In this document: piece after piece, positions 9,587 through 24,966 of the stretch | Position numbering within the stretch: position 1 is the stretch's first letter | Layout of the letters: each line of letters opens with the position of its first letter | DNA from: Akkermansia sp. | GTDB lineage: Bacteria; Verrucomicrobiota; Verrucomicrobiia; Limisphaerales; SIBH01 | Length of the DNA stretch: 24,966 nucleotides | Assembly (NCBI GenBank): GCA_043758205.1 | Contig: JAYVNY010000153.1 | Span: 1-24,966 of the forward strand | Reading direction: 5' to 3' | The notes under the pieces: model-generated | Seen by the model: the letters and a program-made list of their open reading frames with translations, nothing else | Database searches by the model: none | What the model was told of the DNA's origin: nothing | Translations under genes and position numbers: made by a program

Positions 9587-9662
9587 TGGTGGAGCCTAGG
9601 GGATTCGAACCCCTGACCCCCACAATGCCATTGTGGTGCTCTACCAACTGAGCTAAGACCCC
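9587..9662 (-). tRNA. tRNA-Ala (anticodon GGC), CCA encoded
   Basis: The reverse complement folds as ggggtct ta gctc agttggta gagc a ccaca atGGCat tgtgg gggtc agggg ttcgaat cccct aggctcc a cca. All four stems pair. The G3:U70 alanine identity pair is present. Length is 76 nt. Confidence 0.92.
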
Positions 9663-9780: not shown

Positions 9781-11316
9781 TCAACGCTGCGCGGTGACGC
9801 GGTCGGGCGCGTTCAAGCTGTGGAGCGCATTGAGCGAATCCGTGGCGCGGCTCGCCTGGGTCAGCAAAGGCTGAGGATACACCCCGATAAAAACGATCCC
9901 CGCCATGCAGACAAGCAGCGCAAGTTTTGTCGCCAGGGGAACATTGATGGAGGAAACTTCCGCTGAACCGTCCGACCAGTAAATCGCCCGCACCACGCCG
10001 AAGTAGTAGTAGAGCGAGATGACCACGCCCACGATGGCCACGCCCGCGAGCCAGTAATAACCGTGGTTCGTCGGGCCTTGTTCCACGATGGATTTGAGCA
10101 AAAGAAACTTGCCGAAGAAACCGGCCAGCGGCGGAATGCCCGCCAGGGAAACCATCGCCAGCGTCATGGCCGTGGCGAGGAAGGGCGAACGGCGGTTCAG
10201 TCCGACGAGATTGCTCACGTCGTCCGTCTCGGTCTGCCGCGAGACCACCGCGATGACGGTGAAGGCGGCGATGACGGTGAACAGATAGCCGGTGAGGTAA
10301 TAAACGATGGCGGTGGAACCCGCACGGGTCAGGGCGGCAAAACCCATCAGCAGATAACCCGCGTGGGCGATGCTGGAGTAGCCGAGCAGGCGCTTGAGGT
10401 TGCGCTGCGGAATGGCGCAGAGGTTGCCGTAGAGAATGGTGAGCGCCGACAGTACCATGAGAAATTTTTCCCAATGCAGCGTGATGTCCGGCACCGCCGT
10501 GAACAGCACGCGCAGCAGCAGCACGATGCCGGCGGCCTTCGATCCAACGGCGAGGAACGCGGTCGTGGGGGCGGGCGAACCTTGATAAACGTCCGGCGCC
10601 CAAATCTGGAACGGCACCATCGCAATCTTAAAACCAAGTCCCGCCATGATGAGCAGCACACCCGCGATCAGCGTCTTCGGCACGGCGTTGTGCTCGCTCA
10701 CATACTTCACGTATTGCGCGAGATCGGCAAAGTTCATGCCGTTCAACGCCGTGTTCGCGACGGTCGTGGTCGCCGTGCCATAAACCAGCGCAATGCCGAA
10801 CACCGTGAACCCGGTCGAGAGTCCGCCGATGACGAGATACTTCACGCCCGCTTCCAGCGACTGCACCTTGCTGCGCTGAAAACTCGTCAGCACGTAGAAC
10901 GTCACGGTGATGAGTTCGAGCGAAACGAAGAGCAGCACGAAGTCATTCGCTGATGAGGCGAACATCATGCCCGAAAGCGCGAAGAGGATGAGCGAGTAGT
11001 ATTCCGAAATGCCCGCCTCGATGCGGTCGGCAAACTCCGCCGCCATGATGAGCACAAGCACGGCGGCAACGAGAAAGAAGCGTTTGAAGAACAGGGCCAG
11101 CGGATCGAGCACGTAGCTTTTCCCAGCGGCGAACTGGGCGTCGCCAAGACTCGTGAAGAAACTGCTGAACGAGCAGGCGAAAATTACGGCCACGATCAGC
11201 GCGGCGGCGTAGCCGAGCTTGCGCTTGTGCTCGGGGGCCGTCCACAGGTCGAGCAGCAGAATGCCCAAGCCGGCGAGGACCACCGCGATTTCGAGACTCA
11301 TCAGGGAAGCGTTCAT
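9781..11316 (-). CDS. nuoN: NADH-quinone oxidoreductase subunit N
   Basis: A 511-aa polytopic membrane protein of the Mrp-antiporter-like fold. Family-typical stretches include GLSTGFTVFGIALVYG, PFQIWAPDVYQGSPAPTTAFLAVGSKAAG and LLGYSSIAHAGYLL. It is the last gene of the nuo string. Confidence 0.93.
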   Translation of the reverse strand: MNASLMSLEIAVVLAGLGILLLDLWTAPEHKRKLGYAAALIVAVIFACSFSSFFTSLGDAQFAAGKSYVLDPLALFFKRFFLVAAVLVLIMAAEFADRIEAGISEYYSLILFALSGMMFASSANDFVLLFVSLELITVTFYVLTSFQRSKVQSLEAGVKYLVIGGLSTGFTVFGIALVYGTATTTVANTALNGMNFADLAQYVKYVSEHNAVPKTLIAGVLLIMAGLGFKIAMVPFQIWAPDVYQGSPAPTTAFLAVGSKAAGIVLLLRVLFTAVPDITLHWEKFLMVLSALTILYGNLCAIPQRNLKRLLGYSSIAHAGYLLMGFAALTRAGSTAIVYYLTGYLFTVIAAFTVIAVVSRQTETDDVSNLVGLNRRSPFLATAMTLAMVSLAGIPPLAGFFGKFLLLKSIVEQGPTNHGYYWLAGVAIVGVVISLYYYFGVVRAIYWSDGSAEVSSINVPLATKLALLVCMAGIVFIGVYPQPLLTQASRATDSLNALHSLNAPDRVTAQR

Positions 11317-11317
11317 C

Positions 11318-11710
11318 TTATTCCAAACTGGCGACGTGCCGGTATCTTCGGATGCGGGTATCCGTCGTTACGACCGGACAATTGTTCAACCGAGCCTGCG
11401 CCACCACGAGCCGGTCAATGGGATCCTCGTGGAAATCCACGGGTAGCTTATCGGCGGCTTCGATGAGCGCCACGCCAATCGGAATTACCGACCAGTTGAA
11501 CCGGGCCACATGAAACTGAAACCATTCCGGCCACAAGCGGTCCAACTGGAGCCGCTGTCGGCGCACGGCGCAGGCGATTTCCCACGCGCTGGCCGCCAGT
11601 ACCTCCACCTCCGCCGCCGGGTCTTCGAGATCGCGACGGACTGCTTCGCTCAATCGCTGCGGCGTGAGCGAGAGAAAGATGACGGCGCAGGTATCCAGGA
11701 CAAATTTCAC
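11318..11710 (-). CDS. vapC: PIN-domain toxin (VapC family)
   Basis: The GTG at 11710 overlaps the antitoxin stop (GTGA). The four PIN acidic positions are present: VLDTCAV, SAWEIA, PIDRLVV and VTTDTR. The stop TAA at 11318-11320 lies 1 nt before the nuoN ATG at 11316. Confidence 0.85.
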   Translation of the reverse strand: MKFVLDTCAVIFLSLTPQRLSEAVRRDLEDPAAEVEVLAASAWEIACAVRRQRLQLDRLWPEWFQFHVARFNWSVIPIGVALIEAADKLPVDFHEDPIDRLVVAQARLNNCPVVTTDTRIRRYRHVASLE

Positions 11711-11958
11711 GGGAAGCTTTTGCCGGTGAGCATGTCCCAATCGCCTTCAGGGATGAGCGGCTCATCCAGAGGGCCGAGAATTTTTCCGGTGCCAGTCCCG
11801 CAACCGAACTTGGTCCGGTTTCGCTTTTCCGCCATCGGAACCAGTTTCGCGACGGGCACGCTTTCCTTCGTCAGCACGACCTCGTCCCCGCGTTGCACGT
11901 CGGCGAGGTATTCCGCGAGGTGGCTTCCGAAATCGGCAATGGTGGCGGTCTTCGTCAT
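11707..11958 (-). CDS. Phd/YefM-type antitoxin
   Basis: An 83-aa protein. The N-terminus MTKTATIADFGSHLAEYLADVQRGDEVVLTKESVPVAKLVP matches the Phd/YefM pattern (xxFxxxLxxxLxxVxxGxxVxITxxGxPVAxLVP). It overlaps the downstream PIN gene by 4 nt. The ATG lies 12 nt after the nuoM stop. Confidence 0.78.
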   Translation of the reverse strand: MTKTATIADFGSHLAEYLADVQRGDEVVLTKESVPVAKLVPMAEKRNRTKFGCGTGTGKILGPLDEPLIPEGDWDMLTGKSFP

Positions 11959-11970
11959 GGCGGCAGCGTA

Positions 11971-13560
11971 TCAGTGGGGCGGGGCGACAGCGAGCGCGGG
12001 TTGCGCCGTGCTGGCCACCTTCTTCGGCGCATTGGCCGGATTGGCCATCGGCGATTTGCCATTGGTCATCGCCACGATCTCCTTCACCGCTGGTTCAATC
12101 TTGCTCGTGAGCAAACGTGGCGCGATGCCGAAGAGCAGCAGCGCCACGATGAGCAAGGCGAACGGAACCTTGCGCCACAGGCTGGCGTCCTGAACGGCGG
12201 GCAATCCTTCCGCCGCCGGGCCGTGCAGGATGTTCCGCACCGCGCGCAGCATGTAGATGGCGCCCACGACCAGTGCGCCCCACGCAGCGACGACGACGAA
12301 GGGTGAAAGAGTTTTCCACGCGCCGAAGAGGGTGAGCAGTTCACCGGCGAAATTCGCGAAGCCCGGCAGGCCGCAGCCCGCCATCGCGGCCATGATGAGT
12401 GCGGTGCCGATGAACGGCATCTTCTTGAGCAGGCCACCGAGCTTGCTGATTTCCAGCGTGCCGGTCTGCTCGTTCAAGTAGCCGCTCAGGCCGAAGCTCA
12501 ACGCCGCGAGCAGACCGTGCGCGATCATCACGACCACCGTGCCAGTGATGCCGATGACGCTCAGGCTGGCAAGGCCGAGAAAACAAAAGCCCATGTGCGC
12601 CACGCTGGAATTGCCGAGCAGGAAATTGAAATCGCGCTGACGCATCGCCACCCAGCCGCAGTAAAGAATGTTGCCGAGCGCGAGCCACGCGATGAGATGC
12701 AGGTGCGCTTTGGCGACATCGGGCGCGAAGGGAATCGCGATGCGAATGAGACCGTAGAGTCCAAACTTCTTCAGCACGCCCGCGTGCAGCATGGCCGTGG
12801 CGGCGGGCGCGGAGCCGTAGCCGAGGGGAGCCCAGGTGTGGAACGGAAACAGCGATACGAGAATGCCGAAGCCGAAAAGCAGCAGCGGGAAGACGACCAT
12901 CTGCGAGGAGACGGACAGCGGCGTGGTTTTCAGAAACGCCGTGAGTTGCACGAGATCGAACGTGCGCAGGCCGGACTGGAGGTAGAGCGCGATGAGGCCC
13001 ATCAACGCGATGAGCGCCCCGATGCTGAGATACATCGTGATCTGGAAGGTCGCGTAGGTCTTCTGCTCACCGCGTCCCCACACGCCGATCATGATGAACG
13101 TCGGCACCAGCGCGAGTTCGTGGAACGCGTAGAAGAAGAACAGGTCGAGCGACGCGAACGCGCCGAGGATGCCGCCAATCATCACCAGCAGCAGCACGTA
13201 GAACATCTTGACCTGCTTTTCGATGCGGTGCGACACGCACGTCGCAGCGAAGGCGACGATGGCACCCATCAAAATCAGCCCGACGTTGATGCCGTCCACT
13301 CCGACGTGGAAATTCATGCCCAAAGCCGGAACCCAATCAACCAACTGCGTAAATTGGTAATTGCCATGAAGTGTCGCGTGTTCCGCTGAAGGCGCAAACA
13401 TTGGGTCGAACTTCGCAAACATCACCACGGCCAGAACCATCGACGCGAACGTGCTGACCAAAGCGACGATGCGGATGGCGAAGCGATACTCGCGCGGAAT
13501 CAACGCCACGATCAGCGCTCCGAGGAACGGTGCCAGGATGATGTAGGTGAGGAGCGACAT
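11971..13560 (-). CDS. nuoM: NADH-quinone oxidoreductase subunit M
   Basis: Polytopic antiporter-like subunit. Family-typical stretches include FFFYAFHELALVPTFIMIGVWG, PFHTWAPLGYGSAPAATAMLHAGVLKKFGLYGL and LGNSSVAHMGF. The ATG at 13560 lies 1 nt after the nuoL stop and is preferred over the upstream alternative at 13575. About 40 aa at the C-terminus form a low-complexity tail. Confidence 0.92.
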   Translation of the reverse strand: MSLLTYIILAPFLGALIVALIPREYRFAIRIVALVSTFASMVLAVVMFAKFDPMFAPSAEHATLHGNYQFTQLVDWVPALGMNFHVGVDGINVGLILMGAIVAFAATCVSHRIEKQVKMFYVLLLVMIGGILGAFASLDLFFFYAFHELALVPTFIMIGVWGRGEQKTYATFQITMYLSIGALIALMGLIALYLQSGLRTFDLVQLTAFLKTTPLSVSSQMVVFPLLLFGFGILVSLFPFHTWAPLGYGSAPAATAMLHAGVLKKFGLYGLIRIAIPFAPDVAKAHLHLIAWLALGNILYCGWVAMRQRDFNFLLGNSSVAHMGFCFLGLASLSVIGITGTVVVMIAHGLLAALSFGLSGYLNEQTGTLEISKLGGLLKKMPFIGTALIMAAMAGCGLPGFANFAGELLTLFGAWKTLSPFVVVAAWGALVVGAIYMLRAVRNILHGPAAEGLPAVQDASLWRKVPFALLIVALLLFGIAPRLLTSKIEPAVKEIVAMTNGKSPMANPANAPKKVASTAQPALAVAPPH

Positions 13561-13561
13561 G

Positions 13562-15499
13562 CTATTTGAGAACAAGAATCAGCACCAAGGCTACGCCGAG
13601 CGCGAAGAGGAAGGCGTAGGTCTGGAGATTGCCGGTCTGCACCATGCGCAGGGCGCGGCCGAAAATTTCCGTGCTGCCATGCACGCCGCGCACGCCGAGT
13701 CCGGCGATGATCCAACGGTCGAACCAATCAGCCAGTTTTGAGAGCGCCTCGTGCGTCACGGAGATGAGCGCGGAGTAAAGTTCGTCGAAGTAAAAGCGGT
13801 TCTGCATGGCGCGCGAGAGCCAGCCGAGCTTGGTGACGAGCGGATCCTTGGTCGCGTTCCAGTAGGTCGCGTAGGCCAGGCTGATGCCAACGAGCGCGGC
13901 GAGAATGCCGAACATCGCGGCGAGCAGGTTGTGGCCGAAGGGTTGCAGCAGTGACTCAATCCAGCCGCCGTGGTGCGCTTCGCCGGTAACAAACATTTTA
14001 CCGACAAAGACTTCAATGCCAATGAAGCCGCCGATGACGGAGAACACCGCGAGGATGATGAGCGGCGTGGTCATCACCTTCGGCGATTCGTGGGCGTGTC
14101 CGGCAGCGTCGCTTTTGGCCGGGCCGAAGAAGACTACGAAGAGCAAACGGAACATGTAGAACGCGGTGAGCGCGGCGACGAAAACAGCGACGGCGAACAG
14201 AATCGGTTTGTGCTCAGCGGCTTGCGCAAGAATCGAGTCTTTCGAGTAGAAGCCCGCCAGCGGCCAGATGCCGGCTAGCGCGAGCGTGCCGAGCAGGAAG
14301 GTCTTCCAAGTGACGGGCAGTTTGTGACGGAGCGCGCCCATTTTCCAAATGTCCTGCTCGTGGTGCATGGCGTGAATCACGGAGCCGGCCCCGAGAAACA
14401 GGAGCGCCTTGAAGAACGCGTGCGTGGTCAGGTGGAACATCGCGGGCGTCGGCCCGGCGAGACCGACGGACATGACCATGTAGCCGAGTTGCGAGAGCGT
14501 GGAGTAGGCGAGGATGCGCTTGATGTCGTTCTGTTGCACCGCGATGAGGGCGGCGAGCAGCGCGGTGAAGCCGCCGATCCACGCGATGACATCGAGCGCG
14601 GTCCAGCCGTTCATGAAGGCCATCGCCTCCGGCCACACGGTGCTGGAGCCGAAGATGAAGAACACGCGGCAGAGCATGTAAACGCCCGCGGCCACCATCG
14701 TCGCGGCGTGGATGAGCGCGGAGACGGGCGTCGGGCCTTCCATCGCGTCCGGCAGCCAGACGTGGAGCGGGAACTGCGCGGACTTGCCCATCGCGCCGCA
14801 GAAGATCAGCAGGCCGATGACGTTGATCCAGATGCCCAACTGTTCAGGATTGTTGGCCAGCTTCAATTGCAACGCATCGAAGTTCACGAGGCCGTTCGTC
14901 GCGGTCCACAACATGATGATGCCGATCAGAAAGCCAAAGTCGCCGAGACGGTTCGTGATGAAGGCCTTCTTCGCCGCGTCGCCTGCCGACGGTTTCTCGT
15001 ACCAGAAGCCGATCAGCAGGTAGCTGGAAACGCCGACGAGTTCCCAGAAGATGAACATCATCACGAAGTTGTTCGCGAGGACGATGCCGAGCATCGAGAA
15101 GGTGAACAGGCTCAGGCAGGCGAAGAAGCGCGAGAAGCCCGGGTCTTCGCGCATGTAGCCGTAGGAGTAGATGTGAATCATCAGGCCCACGCCGGTGACG
15201 ACGTGCAGCATCATCAGACTGAGCGCATCGAGGCGCAGGCCGATGTCGATCTTCAACTGATCGCCGCCGGGAAGTCCGACCGAGAGCCAGCCGAACGGCG
15301 TCGCCTCGATGCCTTTCGCCAAATCAATCCCCTGCAAACCGAAGAGCAGCACCAGCGTGATGACCAATCCCGCGCCAATCGCCCCGATCGAAATTAGTGC
15401 GCTGAGGTTCTTCGCGCGTTGCGTGAACAGGGCGATGACCACCGCCGCCGCGAGTGGCAGCAGCAGGACCAGCCAGGCCAGATTTTCCGGGTTGTCCAT
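13562..15499 (-). CDS. nuoL: NADH-quinone oxidoreductase subunit L
   Basis: The ATG at 15499 shares one base with the nuoK stop (TAATG). The N-terminus is [25 protein letters not shown]. Family-typical stretches include FIFWELVGVSSYLLIGFW, GKSAQFPLHVWLPDAMEGPTPVSALIHAATMV and LAYSTLSQLGYM. The ORF-track extension to 15934 reads through nuoK in another frame. Confidence 0.93.
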   Translation of the reverse strand: MDNPENLAWLVLLLPLAAAVVIALFTQRAKNLSALISIGAIGAGLVITLVLLFGLQGIDLAKGIEATPFGWLSVGLPGGDQLKIDIGLRLDALSLMMLHVVTGVGLMIHIYSYGYMREDPGFSRFFACLSLFTFSMLGIVLANNFVMMFIFWELVGVSSYLLIGFWYEKPSAGDAAKKAFITNRLGDFGFLIGIIMLWTATNGLVNFDALQLKLANNPEQLGIWINVIGLLIFCGAMGKSAQFPLHVWLPDAMEGPTPVSALIHAATMVAAGVYMLCRVFFIFGSSTVWPEAMAFMNGWTALDVIAWIGGFTALLAALIAVQQNDIKRILAYSTLSQLGYMVMSVGLAGPTPAMFHLTTHAFFKALLFLGAGSVIHAMHHEQDIWKMGALRHKLPVTWKTFLLGTLALAGIWPLAGFYSKDSILAQAAEHKPILFAVAVFVAALTAFYMFRLLFVVFFGPAKSDAAGHAHESPKVMTTPLIILAVFSVIGGFIGIEVFVGKMFVTGEAHHGGWIESLLQPFGHNLLAAMFGILAALVGISLAYATYWNATKDPLVTKLGWLSRAMQNRFYFDELYSALISVTHEALSKLADWFDRWIIAGLGVRGVHGSTEIFGRALRMVQTGNLQTYAFLFALGVALVLILVLK

Positions 15500-15804
15500 T
15501 ACAGTTTCATGGAGGTCAGGTCTTCGGTGTGCGCGGACTGGCGCTTGCGATAGAGCGCGACAATCAGCGCTAGGCCGACGGCGACTTCCGCCGCCGCGAC
15601 GGTGATGATGAAGAAGACCATGATCTGACCGTTCAGGTTGTTGTTGAAACGCGAGAAGGCGACGAGCGCGAGGTTCGAGGCGTTGAGCATGAGTTCGAGG
15701 CCCATGTACATGACCAGCAGGTTGCGCCGCAGGATGACGCCGAGCACGCCGAGGCTGAACAGCAGCGCGCTCACGACGAGATAATGTTCGAGAGTTACGG
15801 TCAT
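15499..15804 (-). CDS. nuoK: NADH-quinone oxidoreductase subunit K
   Basis: A 101-aa protein with three TM segments. [28 protein letters not shown] and [11 protein letters not shown]...[15 protein letters not shown] are typical NuoK blocks. The ATG at 15804 is chosen because upstream codons are repeat-adjacent and non-homologous. Confidence 0.9.
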
Positions 15805-15888
15805 GCGCGAAAAAGATTCCGGTTGCCCAATGCGTGGTGATCGAGAAAACGCGTGCCGCACATTGCAGTCTCAGCGCTGAAGACGCGT

Positions 15889-16034
15889 GATTCGACAGCC
15901 CAGGGCAAAGCCCTGGGTCGCGGTTGCAAAACATGGTTCAGCCCTGAAGGGGCGGGACAAAGTTGTTTTGCCCTTTCAGGGCTGGCCACAAATCGGAATA
16001 CGCCACCCAGGGCTTTGCCCTGGGCTATCGAATT
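15889..16034. repeat. 146-nt triple-hairpin palindromic element in the nuoJ-nuoK gap
   Basis: H1 is cccagggcaaagccctggg (15899-15917). H2 is cagccctgaagggg...ccctttcagggctg (15939-15984). H3 is cccagggctttgccctggg (16006-16024), the exact reverse complement of H1. The outer flanks ttcgacagcccagggc and gccctgggctatcgaa also pair with one mismatch, so the whole unit is an imperfect palindrome. Confidence 0.85.
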
Positions 16035-16084
16035 GCGCCCCGTTGGGGCTGGTGGCATGGGCTGAAATGGTTCGCGGCGGATTT

Positions 16085-16585
<501 letters not shown>

Positions 16586-16588
16586 GTC

Positions 16589-17161
<573 letters not shown>

Positions 17162-17209
17162 TTCGATTTTCTCGCGACTGCCGCCTCGCGGTGCGTTTGC
17201 CTCAAACCG

Positions 17210-17831
17210 CTCTCATTAGCACCCGGCTTTAGCCGGGTGTGAGCGTCGCGCGTCGAGGGAAACCGTTTCAACGGTTTTCCTCCGGATGCCAGACCAAGCC
17301 ATATTTCTCGACCAACAACTTCAATTCTTCCGTGAAGTTTCTCCTGCGATGGTGCTCTTCCTGATTCGCGATGTAGCCACCGACCTCCTCGACTCCCGAG
17401 TGCGAAACCGAGAACGCGCCGTAGCCGCGCTGCCAGGCAAATTTGCCCGGAACCAGATTGCTTTCGTTCACCCAGTGTGACGAGCCGCCCTTGAGCAGTT
17501 GGAGCACTTCCTCGACGGGCCGGGTGACGGGCAAATCGATCAACGCGTGAACGTGATCCACGTTCACGTAGTTGATACGCATGTAGATGCCCTTCTCCTT
17601 GGCATACTCGTACAGGTGCGCGGAGAGTTTCGCGGCGGCAGGCGGGGCGAGAAGTGGACGACGCCCCAGCGTGGCCCACGTCAGGTGCAGCCAGCTGCGG
17701 CAATAAGAATGGAGCGGCATGGGGCGTCATCCTTTCTTGGTCGAGTTGTGGGCGGAATGAGAAGCCGCTAAAGCGGCTGAAAACTCACGTGCGGATGGAG
17801 TCACCCGGCTAAAGCCGGGTGCTAATGAGAG
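17210..17831 (-). mobile_element. RAYT/IS200-like gene bracketed by perfect 30-nt inverted REP hairpins
   Basis: ctctcattagcacccggctttagccgggtg (17210-17239) is the exact reverse complement of cacccggctaaagccgggtgctaatgagag (17802-17831). Each copy contains an 8-bp GC stem with a tetraloop. Additional hairpins lie at 17258-17280 (ggaaaccg/cggttttcc) and 17763-17778 (agccgc taaa gcggct). Confidence 0.85.
17268..17720 (-). CDS. IS200/IS605-like Y1 (HUH) transposase, REP-associated (RAYT-like)
   Basis: A 150-aa protein. The HUH motif is VDHVHALI. The C-terminal GGYIANQEEHH matches the catalytic-tyrosine helix (YIxNQxxHH) of Y1 transposases. The size and the flanking REP hairpins fit a RAYT. Confidence 0.85.
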   Translation of the reverse strand: MPLHSYCRSWLHLTWATLGRRPLLAPPAAAKLSAHLYEYAKEKGIYMRINYVNVDHVHALIDLPVTRPVEEVLQLLKGGSSHWVNESNLVPGKFAWQRGYGAFSVSHSGVEEVGGYIANQEEHHRRRNFTEELKLLVEKYGLVWHPEENR

Positions 17832-17851
17832 AGGAACTGGAAAGTACGTCA

Positions 17852-18976
17852 TCATTTCGTCGTGCCTGTCGTGAACCACAGCACAATGGCGGTGAGCAAA
17901 ATATTCACCAGCGCTAGCGGGATGAATCTGCGCCAGCCCAGATCCATCAATTGATCGTAACGGAAGCGCGGGAGCATCCAACGCACCCAGATGATCAGGA
18001 CCATGAACGCCAGCAGCTTGCCCAGGAAGATTCCGATGTGCGCGAGTCCCATCGGGATGCTCGTCGCGGGTTGATCGAGTCCCGCGAAAGGCAGCGTCCA
18101 GCCGCCGAAGAACAGCACGACCATCATCGCCGACACCGCGACCATCGCCGCGTATTCGCCCATGAAGAACAGGCCGAAGCGCATCGAGCTGTATTCAGTG
18201 TGATAACCGCCGACGAGTTCGGTCTCGGATTCCGGCAAGTCAAAGGGCAGACGGTTCGTTTCCGCGAACGCCGCCACGAGGAAAATGCAGAACGAGAGGA
18301 AGGTGCAGGGCCAGAGCACGTAGCTCTGCCACGTCTGCTCGCTCGCCATGAACGGCAACGCGAACCAGCCAAACTTTGCCTGATAGGCGATCACTTCACT
18401 GAGGTTCAACTGCCCGACGAGCATGAAAATTGGGATGACCGACATGCCCATCGAAAGCTCGTAGGAAATCATCTGCGCGCTGGAGCGGATGCCGCCGAGG
18501 AACGGATACTTCGAGTTCGACGCGTAGCCCGCGAGCACGATGCCATAGACCGCGAGCGACACGATGCCGAACGTGTAGAGGATGCCGACGTTCAAATCGG
18601 CGATGACCATGCGCTGATTGCCGAGATTTGAGCCGAAGGGAATCACCGCCACCGTCATGAGCGCGGGAATCATCGCGATGGCGGGCGCGAGGGAAAAATA
18701 GATTTTGCGCACCCCCGCCGGCGTAAAGTCTTCCTTGAGGATGAACTTCAAGCCGTCCGCGAGCGGTTGGAAAATGCCGAGACTGATCAGGAACGGGCCG
18801 ATGATCGGAACCTTGGCGAGCAACGGCGGTGCCGTGCGGTTCGGTCCCACGCGATCCTGAATCCACGCCGAGATTTTGCGCTCCGCCAGCACCGCGTAGG
18901 CGACGATGGGCATGACCGCGAGGAAGATCACCGCGAGGATCTTCACCAGACTCCAAATGACAAAGTTCCAGTCCAT
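17852..18976 (-). CDS. nuoH: NADH-quinone oxidoreductase subunit H
   Basis: A 374-aa polytopic protein. Typical blocks are AERKISAWIQDRVGPNR, FQPLADGLKFILKEDFTP, AETNRLPFDLPESETELVGGYHTEYS and FFMGEY. The ATG lies 4 nt after the nuoG stop. Confidence 0.93.
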   Translation of the reverse strand: MDWNFVIWSLVKILAVIFLAVMPIVAYAVLAERKISAWIQDRVGPNRTAPPLLAKVPIIGPFLISLGIFQPLADGLKFILKEDFTPAGVRKIYFSLAPAIAMIPALMTVAVIPFGSNLGNQRMVIADLNVGILYTFGIVSLAVYGIVLAGYASNSKYPFLGGIRSSAQMISYELSMGMSVIPIFMLVGQLNLSEVIAYQAKFGWFALPFMASEQTWQSYVLWPCTFLSFCIFLVAAFAETNRLPFDLPESETELVGGYHTEYSSMRFGLFFMGEYAAMVAVSAMMVVLFFGGWTLPFAGLDQPATSIPMGLAHIGIFLGKLLAFMVLIIWVRWMLPRFRYDQLMDLGWRRFIPLALVNILLTAIVLWFTTGTTK

Positions 18977-18980
18977 CGCG

Positions 18981-20681
18981 TCAGATTTGCACCGTTACGC
19001 CGGTGTCGCCGAGTGCGGCCCAGGTCACGCCGTTGAAGCCCGGCACTTCCTTCGCCATCTGGTTGAACAGACCTTCGATGCTCACGAAGCCGTTCTGGCC
19101 TGTGACGCTGTGAACCAGCTCGTGCAGGAATTCCCACTCGGGTCGCGCATCGCCGCGCGGCTCGACGGCTTTCGTGAAACGCTGCACGCGGCCTTTGATG
19201 TTCGTGAACGAACCGCGCTTCTCGGCGTGCGCGCAGCCGGGCAACAGGTAATGCGCCGCCTCAGTCGTCTTGTTCGGCAAAATGTCGCTGACGATGAGCG
19301 TGTCGAGTTTCGCCAGCAAGTCGGCGCCGAGGCCATGCTTGGTAACGTCTTCACCGAAGACGATGAGTGTCTTGATTTTGCCCGCACGAATGCCGTCCGC
19401 GATCTTCGGGAAGTTGCGGCCCATCTCGGCGTGGCAATCCACGATGCCGGTCAGAATCGCGCCGTTGGTGTTCGGGTTCTTGTCGGCCACGACAAGCAGC
19501 TTGTCCGCTTCACCATTGCGCGGGACAGAATCAGTGATCGCATCCAGCTTGGTCGCAAGTTTTTTGAGCAGGAACAACTCTTCGTTGGTCTGGCGTGCCG
19601 AGGCAACGATGGCCACGGAGCCAGCAGCAGCTTTGCGCAACAATTCAGAAATCTCACCAAGCGCAGAATTCCAACCAGCAACCTTCAACTTTGAACCAGC
19701 CACCTTCGTCAGCCGCTTGTCGCTGCCGATCCATTTATAGTTCAGCCGCCCCGCGTCGCACATCCACGTCGCGTTCACCGCGTCATTCTCGCGCGGTTCG
19801 TAGCGATAGACTTTGTCCTCGCGCGACCCCATGACCGTGTTGCAACCGGTGCCGCAGCTTGTGCAGAGGCTCTTGGTTTCCTTGAGAAACCACACGCGCA
19901 TCTGGAAACGAAAATCCTTCGACGTGAGCGCGCCCACGGGACAGATGTCCACGGTGTTGAGCGTGTAGTTGTTGTCGAACGGCTGGCCGGGGAACGCGGA
20001 GATGGTGTTGTAGCTGCCGCGGTTCACGATGCCGAGCGCGTCATCGCCCGCGACGTCTTTGGTGAACCGGATGCACCGCGTGCAGAGGACACAACGCTCG
20101 GCGTCGAGCACTATGCGCGGCCCGAGATCGATGCGCTTGGGTTTGTGAACCTTCACCTCGACGAAGCGGCTCTGCGCCTGGCCATAATCGACCGAATACT
20201 CCTGGAGCTTGCACTCGCCGGCCTGATCGCAAATCGGGCAGTCGAGCGGATGATTGATGAGCAGCGATTCGAGCACGCCCTCACGCATCTGCTTCACGCC
20301 CGGAGTGGTCGTGTAAATCTCCATGCCCGGCGAAATCGGCGTGGCGCAGGCGATGGCGGGGCGCGGCGACTTGGCAATCTTCGGCGAGCCGTCTTCGTTG
20401 AGCAGCGGCTTGCGATCCGGTCCCATCGCCGGCGTGCCGAACTCGACGAGGCACATGCGGCAGTTGCCTGCGACCGGCAGCTTCGGATGATAGCAGTAGT
20501 GCGGCACGTCGATCTTCGCGAGTGCCGTGACCTGAATCATCGTGGTCGCCACCGGCTTGCCCGTGACCGGATCGGGCATCGTCTTCGGCACGGCGATGGC
20601 CTTGCCATCCACCTTCACGGTGATGGTTTCGACCGCCGGCGCGGCGGGCTTCGGTTCAGTTGTGGCTGCGGTGGACATCAT
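18981..20681 (-). CDS. nuoG: NADH-quinone oxidoreductase subunit G (short form, 566 aa)
   Basis: The N-terminal 2Fe-2S region reads VDGKAIAV...HYCYHPKLPVAGNCRMCLVE. Further clusters are HPLDCPICDQAGECKLQ and CVLCTRCIRF...CPVGA. A molybdopterin-oxidoreductase-like domain follows. The ATG at 20681 overlaps the stop of the upstream Uma2 gene (TAATG), and a second ATG lies at 20678. Confidence 0.9.
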   Translation of the reverse strand: MMSTAATTEPKPAAPAVETITVKVDGKAIAVPKTMPDPVTGKPVATTMIQVTALAKIDVPHYCYHPKLPVAGNCRMCLVEFGTPAMGPDRKPLLNEDGSPKIAKSPRPAIACATPISPGMEIYTTTPGVKQMREGVLESLLINHPLDCPICDQAGECKLQEYSVDYGQAQSRFVEVKVHKPKRIDLGPRIVLDAERCVLCTRCIRFTKDVAGDDALGIVNRGSYNTISAFPGQPFDNNYTLNTVDICPVGALTSKDFRFQMRVWFLKETKSLCTSCGTGCNTVMGSREDKVYRYEPRENDAVNATWMCDAGRLNYKWIGSDKRLTKVAGSKLKVAGWNSALGEISELLRKAAAGSVAIVASARQTNEELFLLKKLATKLDAITDSVPRNGEADKLLVVADKNPNTNGAILTGIVDCHAEMGRNFPKIADGIRAGKIKTLIVFGEDVTKHGLGADLLAKLDTLIVSDILPNKTTEAAHYLLPGCAHAEKRGSFTNIKGRVQRFTKAVEPRGDARPEWEFLHELVHSVTGQNGFVSIEGLFNQMAKEVPGFNGVTWAALGDTGVTVQI

Positions 20682-21388
20682 TACTTTCCAGCAATCTTTT
20701 TCACGAATGCGGTGTGCTCCGCGCTGCGCAAACCTTTGTCGAGGACCGTCGAGACGCGGCGATGTTCGCCGGCCAGCAAGGCGCGGAGATCGAGCCAGAG
20801 TCCCGGAAATACCTGGCTGCAATGCACGCCGTCGTGGCGCGGCTTGAGCGCGACGTACGCCCCGTCGCGCAACGTCCACCAGTCCAACCGTGCATCCAGC
20901 ACCCGCCAGAGCAAATACTCCTGCACGCCCAGGCGCTCGTACACATCGCGCTTCTCGTGCGAATCGTAGTCACTGCTGCTGACGGCGACTTCCGCGACGA
21001 GTTCGGGCGCGCCTTCAATGTAGTTGTCCGCAGAGATTCGAGAGCGGCCCAGCGCGGGCGATTCGATGCGTAAAAGGCAGTCGGGTTGGAATTCGTTTTT
21101 GTTGTCGAGACGGACGGATGGAGTGATGCGTGAAACCACGCCCGCCGTTTCGGAAGCGTAGCGGGCAAGATAGAGGAAGACATCGTTGTGCGATCCACTG
21201 TGCATCTCACTGGTCGGTGGTGGCATAAAGACAATCCCCTCAATCAACTCCGCGCGCCGCAGGTGGGGCATCGCATCCCAACGCCGTTCAAATTCGACGC
21301 GAGACAGATGATCGCCGTTGCACAACGGAGCCACCGCCGGCTTGGCGGGCTTGGACATTTTTGCTTTGTTGAGTGTGGCGGTGCTCAT
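20681..21388 (-). CDS. Uma2-family (DUF820) PD-(D/E)xK putative endonuclease
   Basis: AELIEGIVFMPPPTSEMHS, FQPDCLL and APELVAEVAVSSSDYDSHEKRDVYERLGVQEYLLWRV match the Uma2 pattern (ELIxGxxxMxP, PD, PxLVxEVxS...D...K...Y...GVxEYW). The putative D/E/K catalytic residues are intact. The start is 21388 or the internal ATG at 21358. Confidence 0.8.
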   Translation of the reverse strand: MSTATLNKAKMSKPAKPAVAPLCNGDHLSRVEFERRWDAMPHLRRAELIEGIVFMPPPTSEMHSGSHNDVFLYLARYASETAGVVSRITPSVRLDNKNEFQPDCLLRIESPALGRSRISADNYIEGAPELVAEVAVSSSDYDSHEKRDVYERLGVQEYLLWRVLDARLDWWTLRDGAYVALKPRHDGVHCSQVFPGLWLDLRALLAGEHRRVSTVLDKGLRSAEHTAFVKKIAGK

Positions 21389-21397
21389 GCGTGCAGC

Positions 21398-22837
21398 TTA
21401 CGTGCTTTGCGGACTCGCTGCGATCTTCAAATCTTGTGTCGGGCCAGCGCCGCTTTTGGGGCGACGCGCTTCGTCCGCCGCTCCTTTGGCGATGAACTCG
21501 TCTTTGAACTTCCCGACAAAACTTTGCACGGGCCACGAACAGGCTTCGCCGAAGGCGCAGATGGTGCGGCCGCCGGGAATGTTGTTCGCGATGCCGAGCA
21601 GGTAATCCGCGTCGCTCTTGCGGCCTTCGCCATGCGAAAGGCGATGGAGCGCCTTCGACATCCAAAGCGAGCCTTCGCGGCAGGGCGTGCATTGGCCGCA
21701 ACTCTCGTGCGCGTAAAACTCGGCGATGTTCGCCAGCGCCTCGACGATATCGACCGAGTCGTCCATCACGATGATGGCGCTGGAGCCGGACATCGAGCCG
21801 GCGGCGGCGAGCGAGTCGAAGTCGTAGGGCAGGTCGAGCATGTCGGTTTCGACCTCGGTCGTGGTGCCGTCCGCGCCTTTCTTCTTGAGCTTGAATTTCT
21901 CGCCGGCCTTGAAAACTTTTGCGGATGAACCGCCGGGGATGACCGCCTTCAACTTGCGGCCGTCGCGCAGACCGCCGCCGAAGTCCGCGTGGAAGATCAG
22001 TTCACCAATCGTGACCTTGCCGACTTCGATTTCGTAATAGCCCGGCTTCTTCACGTTTCCGCTCAGGCTCACGATGCGCGTGCCGGTGTTGTTCGGTGTG
22101 CCGAGCTTCGCGAACGCGCCCGCGCCCATCTCGACGATGTGCTTCACGTTGCAGAGCGTCTCGACGTTGTTGACGATGGTCGGGCACATCCACAGGCCGA
22201 GGATGGCCGGGAAATACGGCGGCTTGATGCGTGGGTAGGGCCGCTTGCCTTCGAGCGATTCAATCAGGCCCGTTTCTTCGCCGCAGATGTAAGCGCCGGC
22301 GCCGCGATGCACGTGCATTTCCAAATCGAAGCCGCTGCCAAGGATGTTCTTGCCGAGGAAGCCCTTCGCGCGCACCTCCTTCAACGCGCGATTCAAAATG
22401 CGCGCACCCTCGGGCATCTCGCCGCGAATGTAGATGTAGGCCAGCTTCACGTCGTTCGCGAAGCACGAGATGATCATACCCTCGATCAACTGGTGCGGAT
22501 CTTTGTGGATGATCTGGCGGTCCTTGAACGTCCCCGGCTCGGATTCGTCCGCGTTGCAGATGAGGTAAATGGGCTTGCCGCTGCGGCGATCCACGAACGA
22601 CCACTTGAGTCCGCACGAGAAGCCCGCACCGCCACGGCCGCGCAGCCCCGACGCCTTGACGTCTTCGCGGATGACTTCCTGCGGGGACAGCTTCTTGCCG
22701 TCCGGCAAATCCTTCGGCGCAGTCGCGAGCGCCTTCTTCAAGCCCTCGTAGCCGCCGTGACGTAGGTAGCACTCGAGGTCATTCGAGTAGCCGGCGGCGT
22801 CGGCGTGCTTGAGAATGAGGCGAAATTGCTCGGGCAT
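21398..22837 (-). CDS. nuoF: NADH-quinone oxidoreductase subunit F (FMN/NADH-binding, 4Fe-4S)
   Basis: GLRGRGGAGFSCGLKW is the FMN/NADH site, followed by CNADESEPGTFKDR. ESCGQCTPCREG is the N3 cluster. About 35 aa at the C-terminus form a low-complexity tail. Confidence 0.95.
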   Translation of the reverse strand: MPEQFRLILKHADAAGYSNDLECYLRHGGYEGLKKALATAPKDLPDGKKLSPQEVIREDVKASGLRGRGGAGFSCGLKWSFVDRRSGKPIYLICNADESEPGTFKDRQIIHKDPHQLIEGMIISCFANDVKLAYIYIRGEMPEGARILNRALKEVRAKGFLGKNILGSGFDLEMHVHRGAGAYICGEETGLIESLEGKRPYPRIKPPYFPAILGLWMCPTIVNNVETLCNVKHIVEMGAGAFAKLGTPNNTGTRIVSLSGNVKKPGYYEIEVGKVTIGELIFHADFGGGLRDGRKLKAVIPGGSSAKVFKAGEKFKLKKKGADGTTTEVETDMLDLPYDFDSLAAAGSMSGSSAIIVMDDSVDIVEALANIAEFYAHESCGQCTPCREGSLWMSKALHRLSHGEGRKSDADYLLGIANNIPGGRTICAFGEACSWPVQSFVGKFKDEFIAKGAADEARRPKSGAGPTQDLKIAASPQST

Positions 22838-22846
22838 ATCAGCGTC

Positions 22847-22874
22847 TTGACTCAGGAATGAAACTCCCTACCTT
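22847..22874 (+). promoter_or_regulatory. Putative sigma70-type promoter of tRNA-Gln
   Basis: TTGACT (22847-22852) is followed by a 16-nt spacer and TACCTT (22869-22874). The hexamer ends 16 nt upstream of the mature tRNA 5' end. The hexamer pair matches the one upstream of tRNA-Ala. Confidence 0.35.
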
Positions 22875-22890
22875 CTCGCGGCTCTGGCAC

Positions 22891-22964
22891 TGCCCGATGG
22901 TGTAACGGTAGCACAAGCGACTCTGAATCGCTTTGTCATGGTTCAAATCCATGTCGGGCAGCCA
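22891..22964 (+). tRNA. tRNA-Gln (anticodon CTG), CCA encoded, antisense to the nuo operon
   Basis: It folds as tgcccga tg gtgt aacggta gcac a agcga ctCTGaa tcgct ttgt catgg ttcaaat ccatg tcgggca g cca (74 nt). U1:A72 and G73 are the features known for bacterial tRNA-Gln. The T-loop TTCAAAT and the D-loop GG occur only in the plus orientation. Confidence 0.88.
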
Positions 22965-22966
22965 AT

Positions 22967-23503
22967 TCATTTGCACTTCCCCAAAATCTCGTCTGCCTTC
23001 GCATTTGAGACGCCTTCGTAAAAATCCTCGTTGCACATCATCACCGGGGCGGTCCCGCAGCTTGCGAGGCATTCGACAAATTCAACCGTGTATTTGCCGT
23101 CCTTCGTGGTTTGCGGGCCGTGCGCGTGGGAATTCAGCCCCAGGCGCGAGCAGAAATGTTCGTGCAGTTCGCCGGAGCCGCCGAGCGCGCAGCTCAATGT
23201 GCGGCAAACTTTGAGGTGATGCTTCCCCACCGGCGCGCGTTGCAGCATCGGATAGAAGGTCACGATCTCGTAGATGTTGATTGGTGAAAGTCCGAGCTTC
23301 TTCGCCGCCCAAGTCACGGACTCCTGCGGAATCCAGCCGTGCGCCTCTTGGATGGCGTGCAGCACCATGAGCGAGGCGGCGCGTGCCTTGTCCGCGGGAT
23401 AATGCGTGAGCAACTCGGCGACTTCCGCTTCGAGCGCGGGCGTGGGTTTCCACGTCGGGTCGGGCCGAAGCTCATTCGGGATTGGATCGAAGTGCTCGCT
23501 CAT
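22967..23503 (-). CDS. nuoE: NADH-quinone oxidoreductase subunit E (2Fe-2S)
   Basis: YEIVTFYPM is present. The cysteine pattern KVCRTLSCALGG ... VECLASCGTAP gives Cx4C...Cx3C. The ATG overlaps the nuoD stop (ATGA). Confidence 0.93.
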   Translation of the reverse strand: MSEHFDPIPNELRPDPTWKPTPALEAEVAELLTHYPADKARAASLMVLHAIQEAHGWIPQESVTWAAKKLGLSPINIYEIVTFYPMLQRAPVGKHHLKVCRTLSCALGGSGELHEHFCSRLGLNSHAHGPQTTKDGKYTVEFVECLASCGTAPVMMCNEDFYEGVSNAKADEILGKCK

Positions 23504-24804
23504 CGGTCACACTCTCCCATCACGAAATCAATCGAGCCGAGGATGCTCACCACGTCGCTCATCATGTGGCCGGGCAGCACATGCGACATGATGCTCAGGT
23601 TGCAGAAGGACGGCGCGCGAATCTTCAGCCGATACGGCGTACCGCCGCCGCGTGAGTTGATGTAGAAGCCCAGCTCGCCCTTCGGATTCTCCGCGCCGAA
23701 ATAAATTTCTCCGGGCGGTGCGTTCACGCCCTGCGTCACGTTGATGAACTGATGAATCAGTTCCTCCATGCTCGTCAGCACTTTGCTTTTCGGCGGCAAC
23801 GTCACCTTGCCATCCGCGATGTTCACCGGCTCCTGGCCTTCGTTATCCGCGCCGCCGGGAATGCGGTCGAGGCACTGGCGCACGATGCGCACGCTCTGGC
23901 GCATCTCTTCCATCCGCACGAGGTAGCGGTCGTAGCAGTCGCCGACCGAGCCGATGGGCACCTCGAACTCCAAATCCTTGTAGATGAGATACGGGTTGGC
24001 CTTGCGCACGTCGTAGTCCACGCCGCTGCCGCGCAGGTTCGGGCCGGTCAGTCCGTAGTCAATCGCGTCCTCCTTCGAGATGACGCCGACATCGCGCGTG
24101 CGATCCACGAAGATGCGATTGCGCGTGAGCAGCGTCTCCGACTCATCGAAGTTCACCACCACTTCGTCGCAGAACTTCCGCACCGCCGCGACCCAGCCCG
24201 GCGGCGTGTCGCGCGAAACGCCGCCGATGCGCGTGTAGCTCGTGGTGAACCGCGCGCCGGTCAGCGCCTCGAACAAGTTGTAGAGCTTCTCGCGTTCCGT
24301 GAACGTGTGCATGAACACGGTCAGCGCACCCACGTCCATCGCATACGCGCCCAGCCCGAGCAGATGCGCCGAGACGCGCGCCAGTTCGCAGCAGATCACG
24401 CGGATGTATTGGCAGCGCGGTGGCAGCTTCTGGTCAATACCCATCAGCTTTTCCACGGCCAGCGCGTAAGCCACGTTGTTCGCCAGCGGCGCGAGGTAAT
24501 CCAGTCGATCCGTGTACGGGATGAACTGGGTGTAAGTCATGTTCTCGGCGATTTTCTCGTCGCCGCGATGCAGGTAGCCGACATCGGGAATCGCCTTCGT
24601 GATGATCTCGCCATCCATCTCCAGCACGATGCGCAACACACCATGCGTGGACGGATGCGACGGTCCCATGTTAAGGACCATCTTCTCGCCTTCCATGTCG
24701 CCGGGCTGATTCTGCAACTCCGGCGCGACGACGCCCTGCTGCGCGTCCGCCGCGGCGATCCGCGAAGGCGCGTCACGAAAAGTGATTTCCTGGGTCGTGG
24801 CCAT
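23500..24804 (-). CDS. nuoD: NADH-quinone oxidoreductase subunit D
   Basis: Typical blocks are LNMGPSHPSTHGVLRIVLEMDGEII, GYLHRGDEKIAE and DRLDYL. The C-terminus reads PGHMMSDVVSILGSIDFVMGECDR. The ATG at 24804 directly abuts the nuoC stop. Confidence 0.95.
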   Translation of the reverse strand: MATTQEITFRDAPSRIAAADAQQGVVAPELQNQPGDMEGEKMVLNMGPSHPSTHGVLRIVLEMDGEIITKAIPDVGYLHRGDEKIAENMTYTQFIPYTDRLDYLAPLANNVAYALAVEKLMGIDQKLPPRCQYIRVICCELARVSAHLLGLGAYAMDVGALTVFMHTFTEREKLYNLFEALTGARFTTSYTRIGGVSRDTPPGWVAAVRKFCDEVVVNFDESETLLTRNRIFVDRTRDVGVISKEDAIDYGLTGPNLRGSGVDYDVRKANPYLIYKDLEFEVPIGSVGDCYDRYLVRMEEMRQSVRIVRQCLDRIPGGADNEGQEPVNIADGKVTLPPKSKVLTSMEELIHQFINVTQGVNAPPGEIYFGAENPKGELGFYINSRGGGTPYRLKIRAPSFCNLSIMSHVLPGHMMSDVVSILGSIDFVMGECDR

Positions 24805-24966
24805 TTACTTGTCTGGAGTGCGTACGCGCGGTTCACGATTCAACGCGCCGTTGCCACCCGCCACCGTAACGAACGGCCCGCCTTCCAGCGGCGCGGATTT
24901 GGTGAAAGCCACATCGGGAAGCTCCGACGGTTTGCCCGCGAGCGGAAAATCTTTGCGCAGCGGGAA
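24805..24966 (-). CDS. nuoC: NADH-quinone oxidoreductase subunit C, 3' end only (window edge)
   Basis: This is my own translation of the minus strand from 24966: FPLRKDFPLAGKPSELPDVAFTKSAPLEGGPFVTVAGGNGALNREPRVRTPDK then TAA (24807-24805). PLRKDFP is the conserved C-terminal NuoC motif. The fragment is too short to appear in the ORF track. Confidence 0.75.
   Translation of the reverse strand, partial: FPLRKDFPLAGKPSELPDVAFTKSAPLEGGPFVTVAGGNGALNREPRVRTPDK

Follow-up and report, generated by a model that had tools for sequence, protein, structure and literature searches.

Cassettes at the cistron boundaries of a respiratory complex I gene cluster in Verrucomicrobiota subdivision 3: a probable long-standing, polymorphic hot spot

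Islands, prophages and plasmids are the usual setting in which toxin-antitoxin (TA) and defence genes are described, and core housekeeping operons have been assumed to be closed to them. Small open reading frames (ORFs) are carried by the intervening sequences of 23S rRNA, integration hot spots are flanked by core genes, and the nqo cluster for complex I in Paracoccus denitrificans contains unidentified reading frames (URFs). The nuo cluster of Rhodobacter capsulatus likewise has extra URFs, of which urf7 encodes an S-adenosylmethionine (SAM)-dependent methyltransferase (PMC9036352). The present work concerns the complex I (nuo) gene cluster in 24,966 nucleotides of contig JAYVNY010000153.1 (assembly GCA_043758205.1), nearly the whole contig and hereafter the window, from an uncultured member of Verrucomicrobiota subdivision 3 (Limisphaerales/Pedosphaerales). 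Comparison with related loci indicates that this cluster is probably an old and continuing, lineage-wide and polymorphic hot spot for cassettes, and that the five of its junctions that carry additional material differ in both age and kind.

As in R. capsulatus and Paracoccus, co-oriented genes lie between complex I genes, and the methyltransferase has a parallel in two related loci (L009 and L017), where a UbiE-like methyltransferase gene separates nuoM from nuoN. Unlike those clusters, the one described here and its relatives have mostly TA pairs, PD-(D/E)XK nucleases, a REP-associated tyrosine transposase (RAYT; REP, repetitive extragenic palindromic) and repeat hairpins, at up to about eight junctions, and the inserts vary even among relatives whose nuo proteins are 89-98% identical. 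The 23S rRNA intervening sequences may be similar in being hairpin-flanked small ORFs within a highly transcribed unit; the nuo junctions of relatives contain PDDEXK_3 genes and one gene of the 23S_rRNA_IVP family, some with inverted-repeat arms. The hot spots flanked by core genes are similar in that conserved flanks would allow exchange by recombination. In contrast to both, the host here is a protein-coding cluster, and a series of cistron boundaries is occupied rather than one inter-operon site.

The window contains nuoC to nuoN on the minus strand as intact reading frames in the order C, D, E, F, G, H, I, J, K, L, M, N, in agreement with about 170 related loci. Every subunit from D to N was matched by Pfam, and the partial nuoC was assigned through alignment to relatives:

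24805..24966, minus strand: nuoC, 3' end, cut by the contig end; its frame ends in TAA abutting the nuoD ATG and aligns to nuoC of L165 and L167
23500..24804, minus strand: nuoD (PF00346, E = 3e-116)
22967..23503, minus strand: nuoE (PF01257, E = 3e-44), with an ATGA overlap with nuoD
21398..22837, minus strand: nuoF (PF01512, PF10589)
18981..20681, minus strand: nuoG (PF22117, PF10588, PF00384)
17852..18976, minus strand: nuoH (PF00146, E = 6e-113)
16589..17161, minus strand: nuoI (Fer4 families)
16085..16585, minus strand: nuoJ (PF00499)
15499..15804, minus strand: nuoK (PF00420)
13562..15499, minus strand: nuoL (PF00361, PF00662, PF06455), with a TAATG overlap with nuoK
11971..13560, minus strand: nuoM (PF00361); the start at 13560 is the same as in the gene calls of L161, L165 and L168
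9781..11316, minus strand: nuoN (PF00361)

Six junctions are tight: TAA abuts ATG at C/D, the genes overlap as ATGA at D/E and as TAATG at K/L, and the spacing is 4 nt at G/H, 3 nt at I/J and 1 nt at L/M (counted from the ATG at 13560). The other five are loaded, with an antisense tRNA-Gln gene at E/F, a Uma2 gene at F/G, a RAYT gene with REP sequences at H/I, a palindrome in a 280-nt gap at J/K, and a Phd-VapC pair at M/N. This anatomy had been reported in a first-pass annotation of the window, and all of it was confirmed when each junction was re-read from the sequence. Because the source is a contig of a metagenome-assembled genome (MAG), and because support comes from assembly comparison and not read mapping, the inserts might be thought to be chimeric joins. 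This is extremely improbable: in Logan assemblies of two sequencing runs, nuoF-Uma2-nuoG is 100% identical and nuoM-Phd-VapC-nuoN is 100% and 99.9% identical; the nuoH-RAYT-nuoI layout is found again in another MAG at 98% nucleotide identity; the same layouts occur in MAGs and metagenomes of other studies; and the flanking frames are all intact, with precise stop/start geometry. The concern of the first-pass annotation about artefacts is answered by independent assemblies that reproduce the F/G and M/N inserts. Two runs, SRR23617279 and SRR23617267, apparently hold this organism.

Relatives were collected in two ways. Scans of genome and metagenome collections with NuoH gave 160 loci, of which the named records are almost all MAGs of Verrucomicrobiota subdivision 3 (Limisphaerales, Pedosphaera); none of the 160 has a NuoH more than 76% identical to that of the window, and an exact look-up of NuoH gave no match. 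Close relatives are absent from these scans because nuoH is mosaic, and were reached via homologues of VapC and Uma2, whose contigs were then fetched. Compared with the window, the nuo proteins of this close set are 89-98% identical in L165, 87-98% identical apart from NuoH in L168 (which also has the same downstream synteny), 84-98% identical except for NuoH (68%) in L161, and 81-95% identical, with NuoH at 74%, in L167; L170 also belongs to this set, and a remoter set consists of L173, L175-L177 (contigs from JGI metagenomes) and L178. Grouping was by distance clustering. Taking a junction of 200 nt or more as expanded, the following shares of the 160 NuoH-scan loci are expanded at each junction:

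E/F, 41%
F/G, 25%
D/E, 17%
H/I, 11%
I/J, 11%
L/M, 9%
G/H, 6%
K/L, 5%
M/N, 3%
J/K, 1%

The ORFs in these gaps, 112 of them co-oriented with nuo and 35 antisense, belong mostly to families of TA, nuclease or defence type; their Pfam families are DUF2442, Uma2, N6/N4 DNA methylase, PDDEXK_3, Y1 transposase, DUF4160, AbiEii, MazF, HicA, PIN, 23S_rRNA_IVP and a few enzymes. Among the close relatives, L165 has MNT-HEPN at both C/D and L/M, extra ORFs at E/F, Uma2 together with DUF4160-DUF2442 at F/G, a palindrome at I/J, antisense HicAB at K/L and Phd at M/N, and is empty at H/I; L161 is empty at F/G and H/I, with PDDEXK_3 at J/K and MNT-HEPN at L/M; L167 has at least eight occupied junctions; and the window is empty at C/D, I/J, K/L and L/M. 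The five loaded junctions of the window, a density that the first-pass annotation did not know from any one housekeeping operon, are therefore not unique in a group that reaches about eight. Between the window and L165, colinear blocks are 88-96% identical and every insertion or deletion falls exactly at a cistron boundary. Between the window and L168, the nuoH-RAYT-nuoI block is 97.9% identical, compared with 88-92% for the neighbouring blocks, and the NuoH proteins are 99% identical; the mosaic is centred on nuoH and includes a rearranged loop region. Judging from these identities, nuoH-RAYT-nuoI is a recombination tract and the cluster is a recombination mosaic.

The first-pass annotation had proposed that five unrelated selfish elements entered independently and fairly recently, and that they are kept since excision or polar mutation would harm an essential operon. 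The cassette families are indeed usually accessory, Phd-VapC is limited to the closest relatives, and a duplicated target flanks the RAYT module, as expected of a discrete insertion. However, the tRNA-Gln gene is ancestral, Uma2 and RAYT are held in place by relatives down to about 50-60% identity, and clean empty sites (F/G and H/I in L161; H/I in L165; C/D, I/J, K/L and L/M in the window) indicate that loss is harmless, so that for three of the five junctions this reading is already mostly refuted, and as a whole it is quite improbable. With respect to synteny, the notion of five recent, independent colonisations fails for tRNA-Gln, Uma2 and RAYT, which are old and shared in place, and is compatible with the narrow distribution of Phd-VapC; conversely, the possibility that the layout is ancient in the clade proved right in part, since Uma2 and RAYT are common to distant relatives. 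Locking-in by the cost of excision is contradicted by relatives with 84-98% identical nuo proteins, which have clean empty sites where the window is occupied and the reverse: with such sites in near relatives, loss would appear to be easy, clean and frequent.

It might also be argued that there is nothing special about nuo, cassettes and palindromes being everywhere and a 14-gene cluster offering many junctions. In keeping with this, three palindromes are located at junctions of a MoxR/bat operon in the window, one of them of the same repeat family as a nuoG/H insert of L168. The argument is nonetheless unlikely to be correct: neither the 9.5-kb flank of the window nor those of L161, L165, L167 and L168 contain a protein-coding cassette, against 3-8 in each of their nuo clusters; hidden Markov models (HMMs) of families built from the junction ORFs found almost no match in 0.57 Mb of flanking DNA; and genes for PDDEXK_3 and DNA methylase turn up repeatedly, not always at the same nuo junction. 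An enrichment of protein cassettes in nuo compared with elsewhere is therefore indicated, but not proven.

The five loaded junctions differ in history, and E/F, a gap of 129 nt, contains no insertion of the kind found at the others but a tRNA-Gln gene (CTG in the DNA) with its candidate promoter:

22891..22964, plus strand: tRNA-Gln(CUG), antisense to nuo (ARAGORN; Rfam RF00005, 62.9 bits against a gathering score of 29)
22847..22874, plus strand: candidate tRNA-Gln promoter, TTGACT, 16 nt, TACCTT (from an alignment of 70 spacers)

Of 53 loci, 51 have this tRNA gene upstream of nuoF at the same position and in the same orientation; with the metagenome loci included the figure is 86 of 88, and only the two most distant loci are without it. 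It is also at the same place in L173 and L175-L178. On this distribution it is an ancestral feature of the order and not an insertion, contrary to its initial description as foreign material. The spacer between tRNA-Gln and the nuoF start is mostly 45-65 nt long, and the 70 aligned spacers share an invariant CTTGACTC, a fixed spacing and a TAnnnT box, followed by about 15 nt to the 5' end of the tRNA; the -35 box is 2-25 nt from the nuoF start codon across loci (9 nt in the window), and the same motif is present in L175. The conserved motif is predicted to be a sigma-70-type promoter, from which tRNA-Gln would be transcribed away from nuoF, beginning close to the nuoF start codon. In L175-L177, a DHOR or GH2 gene takes the place of nuoE upstream, and tRNA-Gln with its promoter still adjoins nuoF; its persistence there points to the divergent pair tRNA-Gln/nuoF as the conserved unit. 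The E/F junction is most likely an operon boundary, with at least two transcription units, nuoB-E and then nuoF onward: the conserved promoter, and the linkage to nuoF without nuoE, argue against the single nuoC-to-nuoN transcript that had been assumed.

In L175-L177 the divergent pair belongs to a stand-alone tRNA-Gln / nuoF-Uma2-nuoG-tRNA-Ala unit amid unrelated genes, with tRNA-Ala(CGC) after nuoG; either the cluster has been broken up or this is a second NuoF/NuoG pair, and Uma2 is nonetheless between both genes. In the window, tRNA-Ala(GGC) (9587-9662, minus strand) is co-oriented with nuo about 120 nt downstream of nuoN, and the same tRNA is found in L168; with tRNA-Gln upstream, tRNA genes bracket the nuoF-led unit at both ends. 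Between nuoE and tRNA-Gln, several loci (L006, L009, L010, L035, L043, L064 and others) have a conserved co-oriented ORF of about 190-210 amino acids (aa) with no Pfam match, whose homology cluster has 18 members, some of them short frames through the antisense tRNA; L165 and L167 have ORFs of 151-160 aa at the same place, and the window has no such ORF.

The F/G junction of the window holds one gene:

20681..21388, minus strand: Uma2-family PD-(D/E)XK protein (PF05685, E = 8e-26; PADLOC PDC-S03, E = 1e-13; PDB 6okh, E = 3e-10)

It scores 91 bits against PF05685 (gathering score 27) over profile positions 5-171 of 172, and the motif P(D/E)L..EV.S...D...K...Y..G..EY is visible in its sequence; it thus resembles other Uma2 (DUF820) proteins, and the PADLOC candidate defence gene PDC-S03, in having a full-length Pfam match and the usual motif. 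It begins 9 nt past the end of nuoF, and its stop codon shares TAATG with the start of nuoG. All of its homologues with visible context, in 13 lineages and at 49-86% identity, are located between nuoF and nuoG, including those sampled down the match list at 86, 80, 67, 60 and 53% identity. Seven are from NuoH-scan loci (L035, L043, L110, L131, L143, L148 and L158, at 49-54% identity, all co-oriented), and further F/G copies are in L165, L167, L173, L175-L177 and L178; in most lineages the Uma2 stop is 0-3 nt from the nuoG start. No copy of the subfamily was found outside F/G in about 2 Mb of fetched DNA. Whereas Uma2 genes elsewhere are scattered and multi-copy, this subfamily is bound to one position and coupled to nuoG. 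By its distribution it is an old positional resident of F/G and not a recent arrival, and the F/G genes are likely of single origin. The first 20 or so codons of Uma2 (21326-21388, MSTAT..KPAKPAV) resemble those of nuoG (20616-20681, MMSTAAT..KPAAPAV), with 18 of 21 nt matching in one stretch. A copy of the nuoG 5' end was considered as the source of the Uma2 N-terminus and rejected, since the orthologues have the MSTAT start but not the second stretch; the similarity is local, and may be due to duplication, gene conversion, or chance in GC-rich sequence.

The H/I gap, of 690 nt, contains a RAYT-REP module:

17851..17857, minus strand: left target copy AAATGAT, including the nuoH stop codon (alignment to the L161/L165 empty site)
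17802..17834, minus strand: upstream REP hairpin, TCTCATTAG-CACCCGGC-TTTA-GCCGGGTG, a 33-nt inverted repeat 97% complementary to 17207-17239
17764..17777, minus strand: second small hairpin upstream of the RAYT gene, GCCGCTTTAGCGGC (fold; equivalent AAACCGTTTTAACGGTTT in orthologous loci)
17268..17720, minus strand: RAYT-like Y1 (HUH) transposase (PF01797, E = 4e-18), with HVH motif (DHVHALI) and tyrosine (WQRGYGAFSV)
17207..17239, minus strand: downstream REP hairpin, inverted relative to the upstream copy; 33-nt arm, conserved in orthologous loci
17157..17163, minus strand: right target copy AAATGAT, including the nuoI start codon (alignment to the L161/L165 empty site)

In L161 and L165 the empty site is AAATGATTG, with the nuoH stop overlapping the nuoI start (ATGA), and positions 14108-14114 of L165 align to both flanks of the insertion in the window; from this alignment, the module appears to have entered with a 7-nt target duplication. 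The number of REP matches expected by chance is zero. The module follows nuoH in 12 lineages (10 NuoH-scan loci, L167 and L168), always at H/I and at 59-99% identity, and L123 retains only a C-terminal relic of the RAYT. In 10 orthologous loci the order of REP, second small hairpin, gene, hairpin over the stop codon and inverted REP is conserved, and the REP stems show compensatory changes (CACCCGGC/GCCGGGTG, CACCGCGC/GCGCGGTG, CACCTCGC/GCGAGGTG). The comparison indicates a module inherited in place and occasionally lost or truncated. The protein scores 23.7 bits against the curated NCBIfam RAYT equivalog NF047646 (cut-off 80) and 47.3 bits against the NCBIfam IS200 equivalog (cut-off 55); being below both cut-offs, it is named RAYT-like by its organisation, and is a divergent Y1 lineage outside the curated family. 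No exact match to the protein was found by look-up, and Rfam gave only chance-level matches in the H/I gap, the Acido-Lenti-1 model missing the RAYT-flanking REPs. Exact-pattern searches of the loci and of the window, which covers about 25 kb of the genome, found REP copies only beside RAYT genes and in L165. Like domesticated RAYTs, which are single-copy and vertically inherited (PMC5581495), the module consists of one Y1 HUH gene with inverted REP flanks at a fixed locus; unlike known REPtrons, it is inside a respiratory gene cluster and its protein is below the NCBIfam cut-offs.

The M/N junction is occupied by a TA pair:

11707..11958, minus strand: Phd/YefM-type antitoxin (TIGR01552, 33.7 bits against a cut-off of 20.8; PF02604, 27.3 bits, below the gathering score of 29.8)
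11318..11710, minus strand: VapC (PIN) toxin (PF01850, E = 1e-12, 49.1 bits against 23.6)

Like other type II TA systems of the Phd/YefM-VapC kind, it has the antitoxin gene before the toxin gene, a 4-nt overlap (GTGA) and a PIN domain, of which the acidic residues D6, E43, D98 and D116 are visible; plasmid homologues of the toxin are annotated as VapC and adjoin Phd/YefM genes. Phd starts 12 nt after the nuoM stop and VapC ends 1 nt before the nuoN ATG. Both genes are at M/N in L161, L168 and L170, at 82-98% identity, and L165 has Phd there before the locus ends; no homologue of the pair was found in the 160 NuoH-scan loci, 78 of which span M/N. Limited to the four closest relatives, Phd-VapC is, by this distribution, the youngest of the cassettes in the window. 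Whereas type II systems usually have an autoregulated promoter, this pair has no room for one, with 12 nt before it and 1 nt after it, and appears to depend on transcription of the host cluster. The type II modules at nuo junctions of relatives are MNT-HEPN, HicAB, ParE and DUF4160-DUF2442.

The J/K gap contains no protein-coding cassette but a repeat element:

15872..16051, no strand assigned: REPIN-like palindrome in the 280-nt J/K gap, with two inverted Acido-Lenti-1-type units around a central hairpin

The units (16006-16050, plus strand; 15873-15917, minus strand) are within 51-nt arms (15872-15922 and 16001-16051), and the palindrome has a fold of -142 kcal/mol (z = -8.3); against Rfam RF01687 (Acido-Lenti-1, gathering score 37), one unit scores 43.3 bits and its inverted partner 34.4 bits, below that threshold. 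The inverted doublet fits a repeat element better than a small RNA gene. As in a REPIN (a REP doublet forming a hairpin), it is an inverted doublet; its hairpin sequence differs from those of the RAYT-flanking REPs. The hairpin, being very stable, could serve as an RNase III or mRNA-stability site. L165 has the same 280-nt element, with scattered differences by eye, in a nuoJ-to-nuoK block that is 95.8% identical, and L170 has a J/K gap of the same length. In L161, L168 and L119 the J/K junction has a PDDEXK_3 nuclease gene between inverted-repeat arms, in L074 the same arms with only a remnant of the gene, and in many other loci a bare palindrome of about 80-155 nt. Derivation of the palindrome in the window from such a PDDEXK_3 cassette (as in L161, L168 and L119) was considered and rejected, as there is no sequence in common with the cassette arms. 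The palindromes of the neighbouring MoxR-DUF58-DUF4381-BatA-BatB-TPR operon are at three of its junctions (859-953, 2403-2543 and 4731-4869), with arms of 34-55 nt; the second and the 247-nt nuoG/H insert of L168 are members of one repeat family (81% identity), and the third is inside the annotated start of the TPR gene.

With regard to expression, the first-pass annotation had described the three protein-coding insertions as co-oriented with nuo, and two of them as stop/start-coupled to the next nuo gene; the geometry agrees with co-orientation and with coupling to the neighbours, as does the orientation of gap ORFs in relatives (112 against 35). A scan for promoters and terminators found no site in any junction and a total no higher than in shuffled sequence, with -10 criteria that also miss the conserved tRNA promoter. 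Since there are neither room nor sites for promoters and terminators of their own, the co-oriented cassettes are probably transcribed with nuo. No purine run resembling a Shine-Dalgarno sequence is visible upstream of any nuo or cassette start codon in the window (for example gacaagtaaATG, gacgcgATG, ctaggacATG, gaataagATG), and initiation or re-initiation in the cluster seems to be independent of Shine-Dalgarno pairing. As the window stops within nuoC, the status of nuoA can be read only in relatives: nuoB is preceded by unrelated genes in L165 (3164-3289) and L167 (1940-2214), with no nuoA called upstream, and the cluster of this lineage apparently has no nuoA.

The polymorphic hot spot probably works as follows. 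Cassettes and palindromic repeats are placed exactly at cistron boundaries of the complex I cluster, and their gain and loss leave clean alleles, either occupied or empty; recombination between homologous, conserved nuo genes, of which the mosaic is evidence, would in addition carry the alleles between lineages; deletion between short duplications such as AAATGAT would restore empty sites; and selection on complex I would keep only non-polar, co-oriented insertions. Several points weigh against this interpretation. Uma2 genes of cyanobacterial plasmids, at about 49% identity, are as close to that of the window as the nuo-linked genes at about 50%. HicA-HicB is antisense at K/L in L165 (15959-16374), L167 (17934-18334) and L170 (1072-1487), and, together with the antisense tRNA, suggests a cluster that tolerates opposing transcription, in which internal promoters may therefore exist; read-through from nuo into the co-oriented cassettes, and their coupled translation, are most likely, as read from geometry only. 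The palindromes of the bat operon show that palindromes, at least, are genome-wide and not specific to nuo. Finally, the HMMs of junction ORFs favour positional orthologues, and the controls behind an enrichment relative to the genome at large are weak.

Conservation of the older cassettes might instead reflect domestication, in which Uma2, RAYT and perhaps the TA pairs serve the host, by processing or balancing the long nuo transcript or by making growth arrest or abortive defence against phage depend on transcription of a strongly expressed operon, and in which the tRNA-Gln promoter, overlapping the nuoF start, might regulate the NADH-oxidising module in step with growth rate. The RAYT orthologues are as conserved as NuoH (75-77% against 71-72% in L104 and L112), Uma2 is intact and coupled to nuoG in 13 lineages, even in the stand-alone nuoF-Uma2-nuoG of L175-L177, Phd and VapC diverge about as much as NuoM and NuoN (83/82% against 85/84% identity in L161), and for RAYTs a single-copy, vertically inherited state is already known (PMC5581495). 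However, Uma2 is present in only about 7 of 108 F/G junctions and RAYT in about 10 of 150 H/I junctions, so that neither is needed for complex I, and the conservation, known from sequence alone, may reflect only selection against polar damage together with toxin-antitoxin addiction; domestication is accordingly given little probability. A bolder version of the hot-spot interpretation can be offered only tentatively: that the cluster is a cassette platform, on which promoterless TA, nuclease and defence cassettes would obtain coupled expression and be shuffled through nuo, with Uma2 and RAYT co-evolving, and that, separately, the tRNA-Gln promoter may be a device setting the NADH-oxidising module against tRNA (growth-rate) transcription.

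A literature search on nuo, Verrucomicrobia and toxin-antitoxin found nothing, and one on TA modules in essential operons found nothing relevant; an order-wide, polymorphic series of TA and nuclease cassettes inside a respiratory cluster appears to be undescribed, as does the conserved divergent tRNA-Gln/nuoF promoter arrangement. A core respiratory cluster that repeatedly carries TA and defence genes at its internal junctions across an order, with clean presence/absence in close relatives, would be a natural test system for how promoterless cassettes gain expression, persist and spread by recombination, and for the degree of interruption that a long operon can bear. Separately, the tRNA-Gln/nuoF pair would offer a directly testable example in which a tRNA promoter and the beginning of a respiratory gene have sequence in common. 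For annotation, the nuo cluster of this clade should not be taken as one operon, and Uma2 and RAYT genes at nuo should be regarded as positional markers and not as recent mobile DNA.

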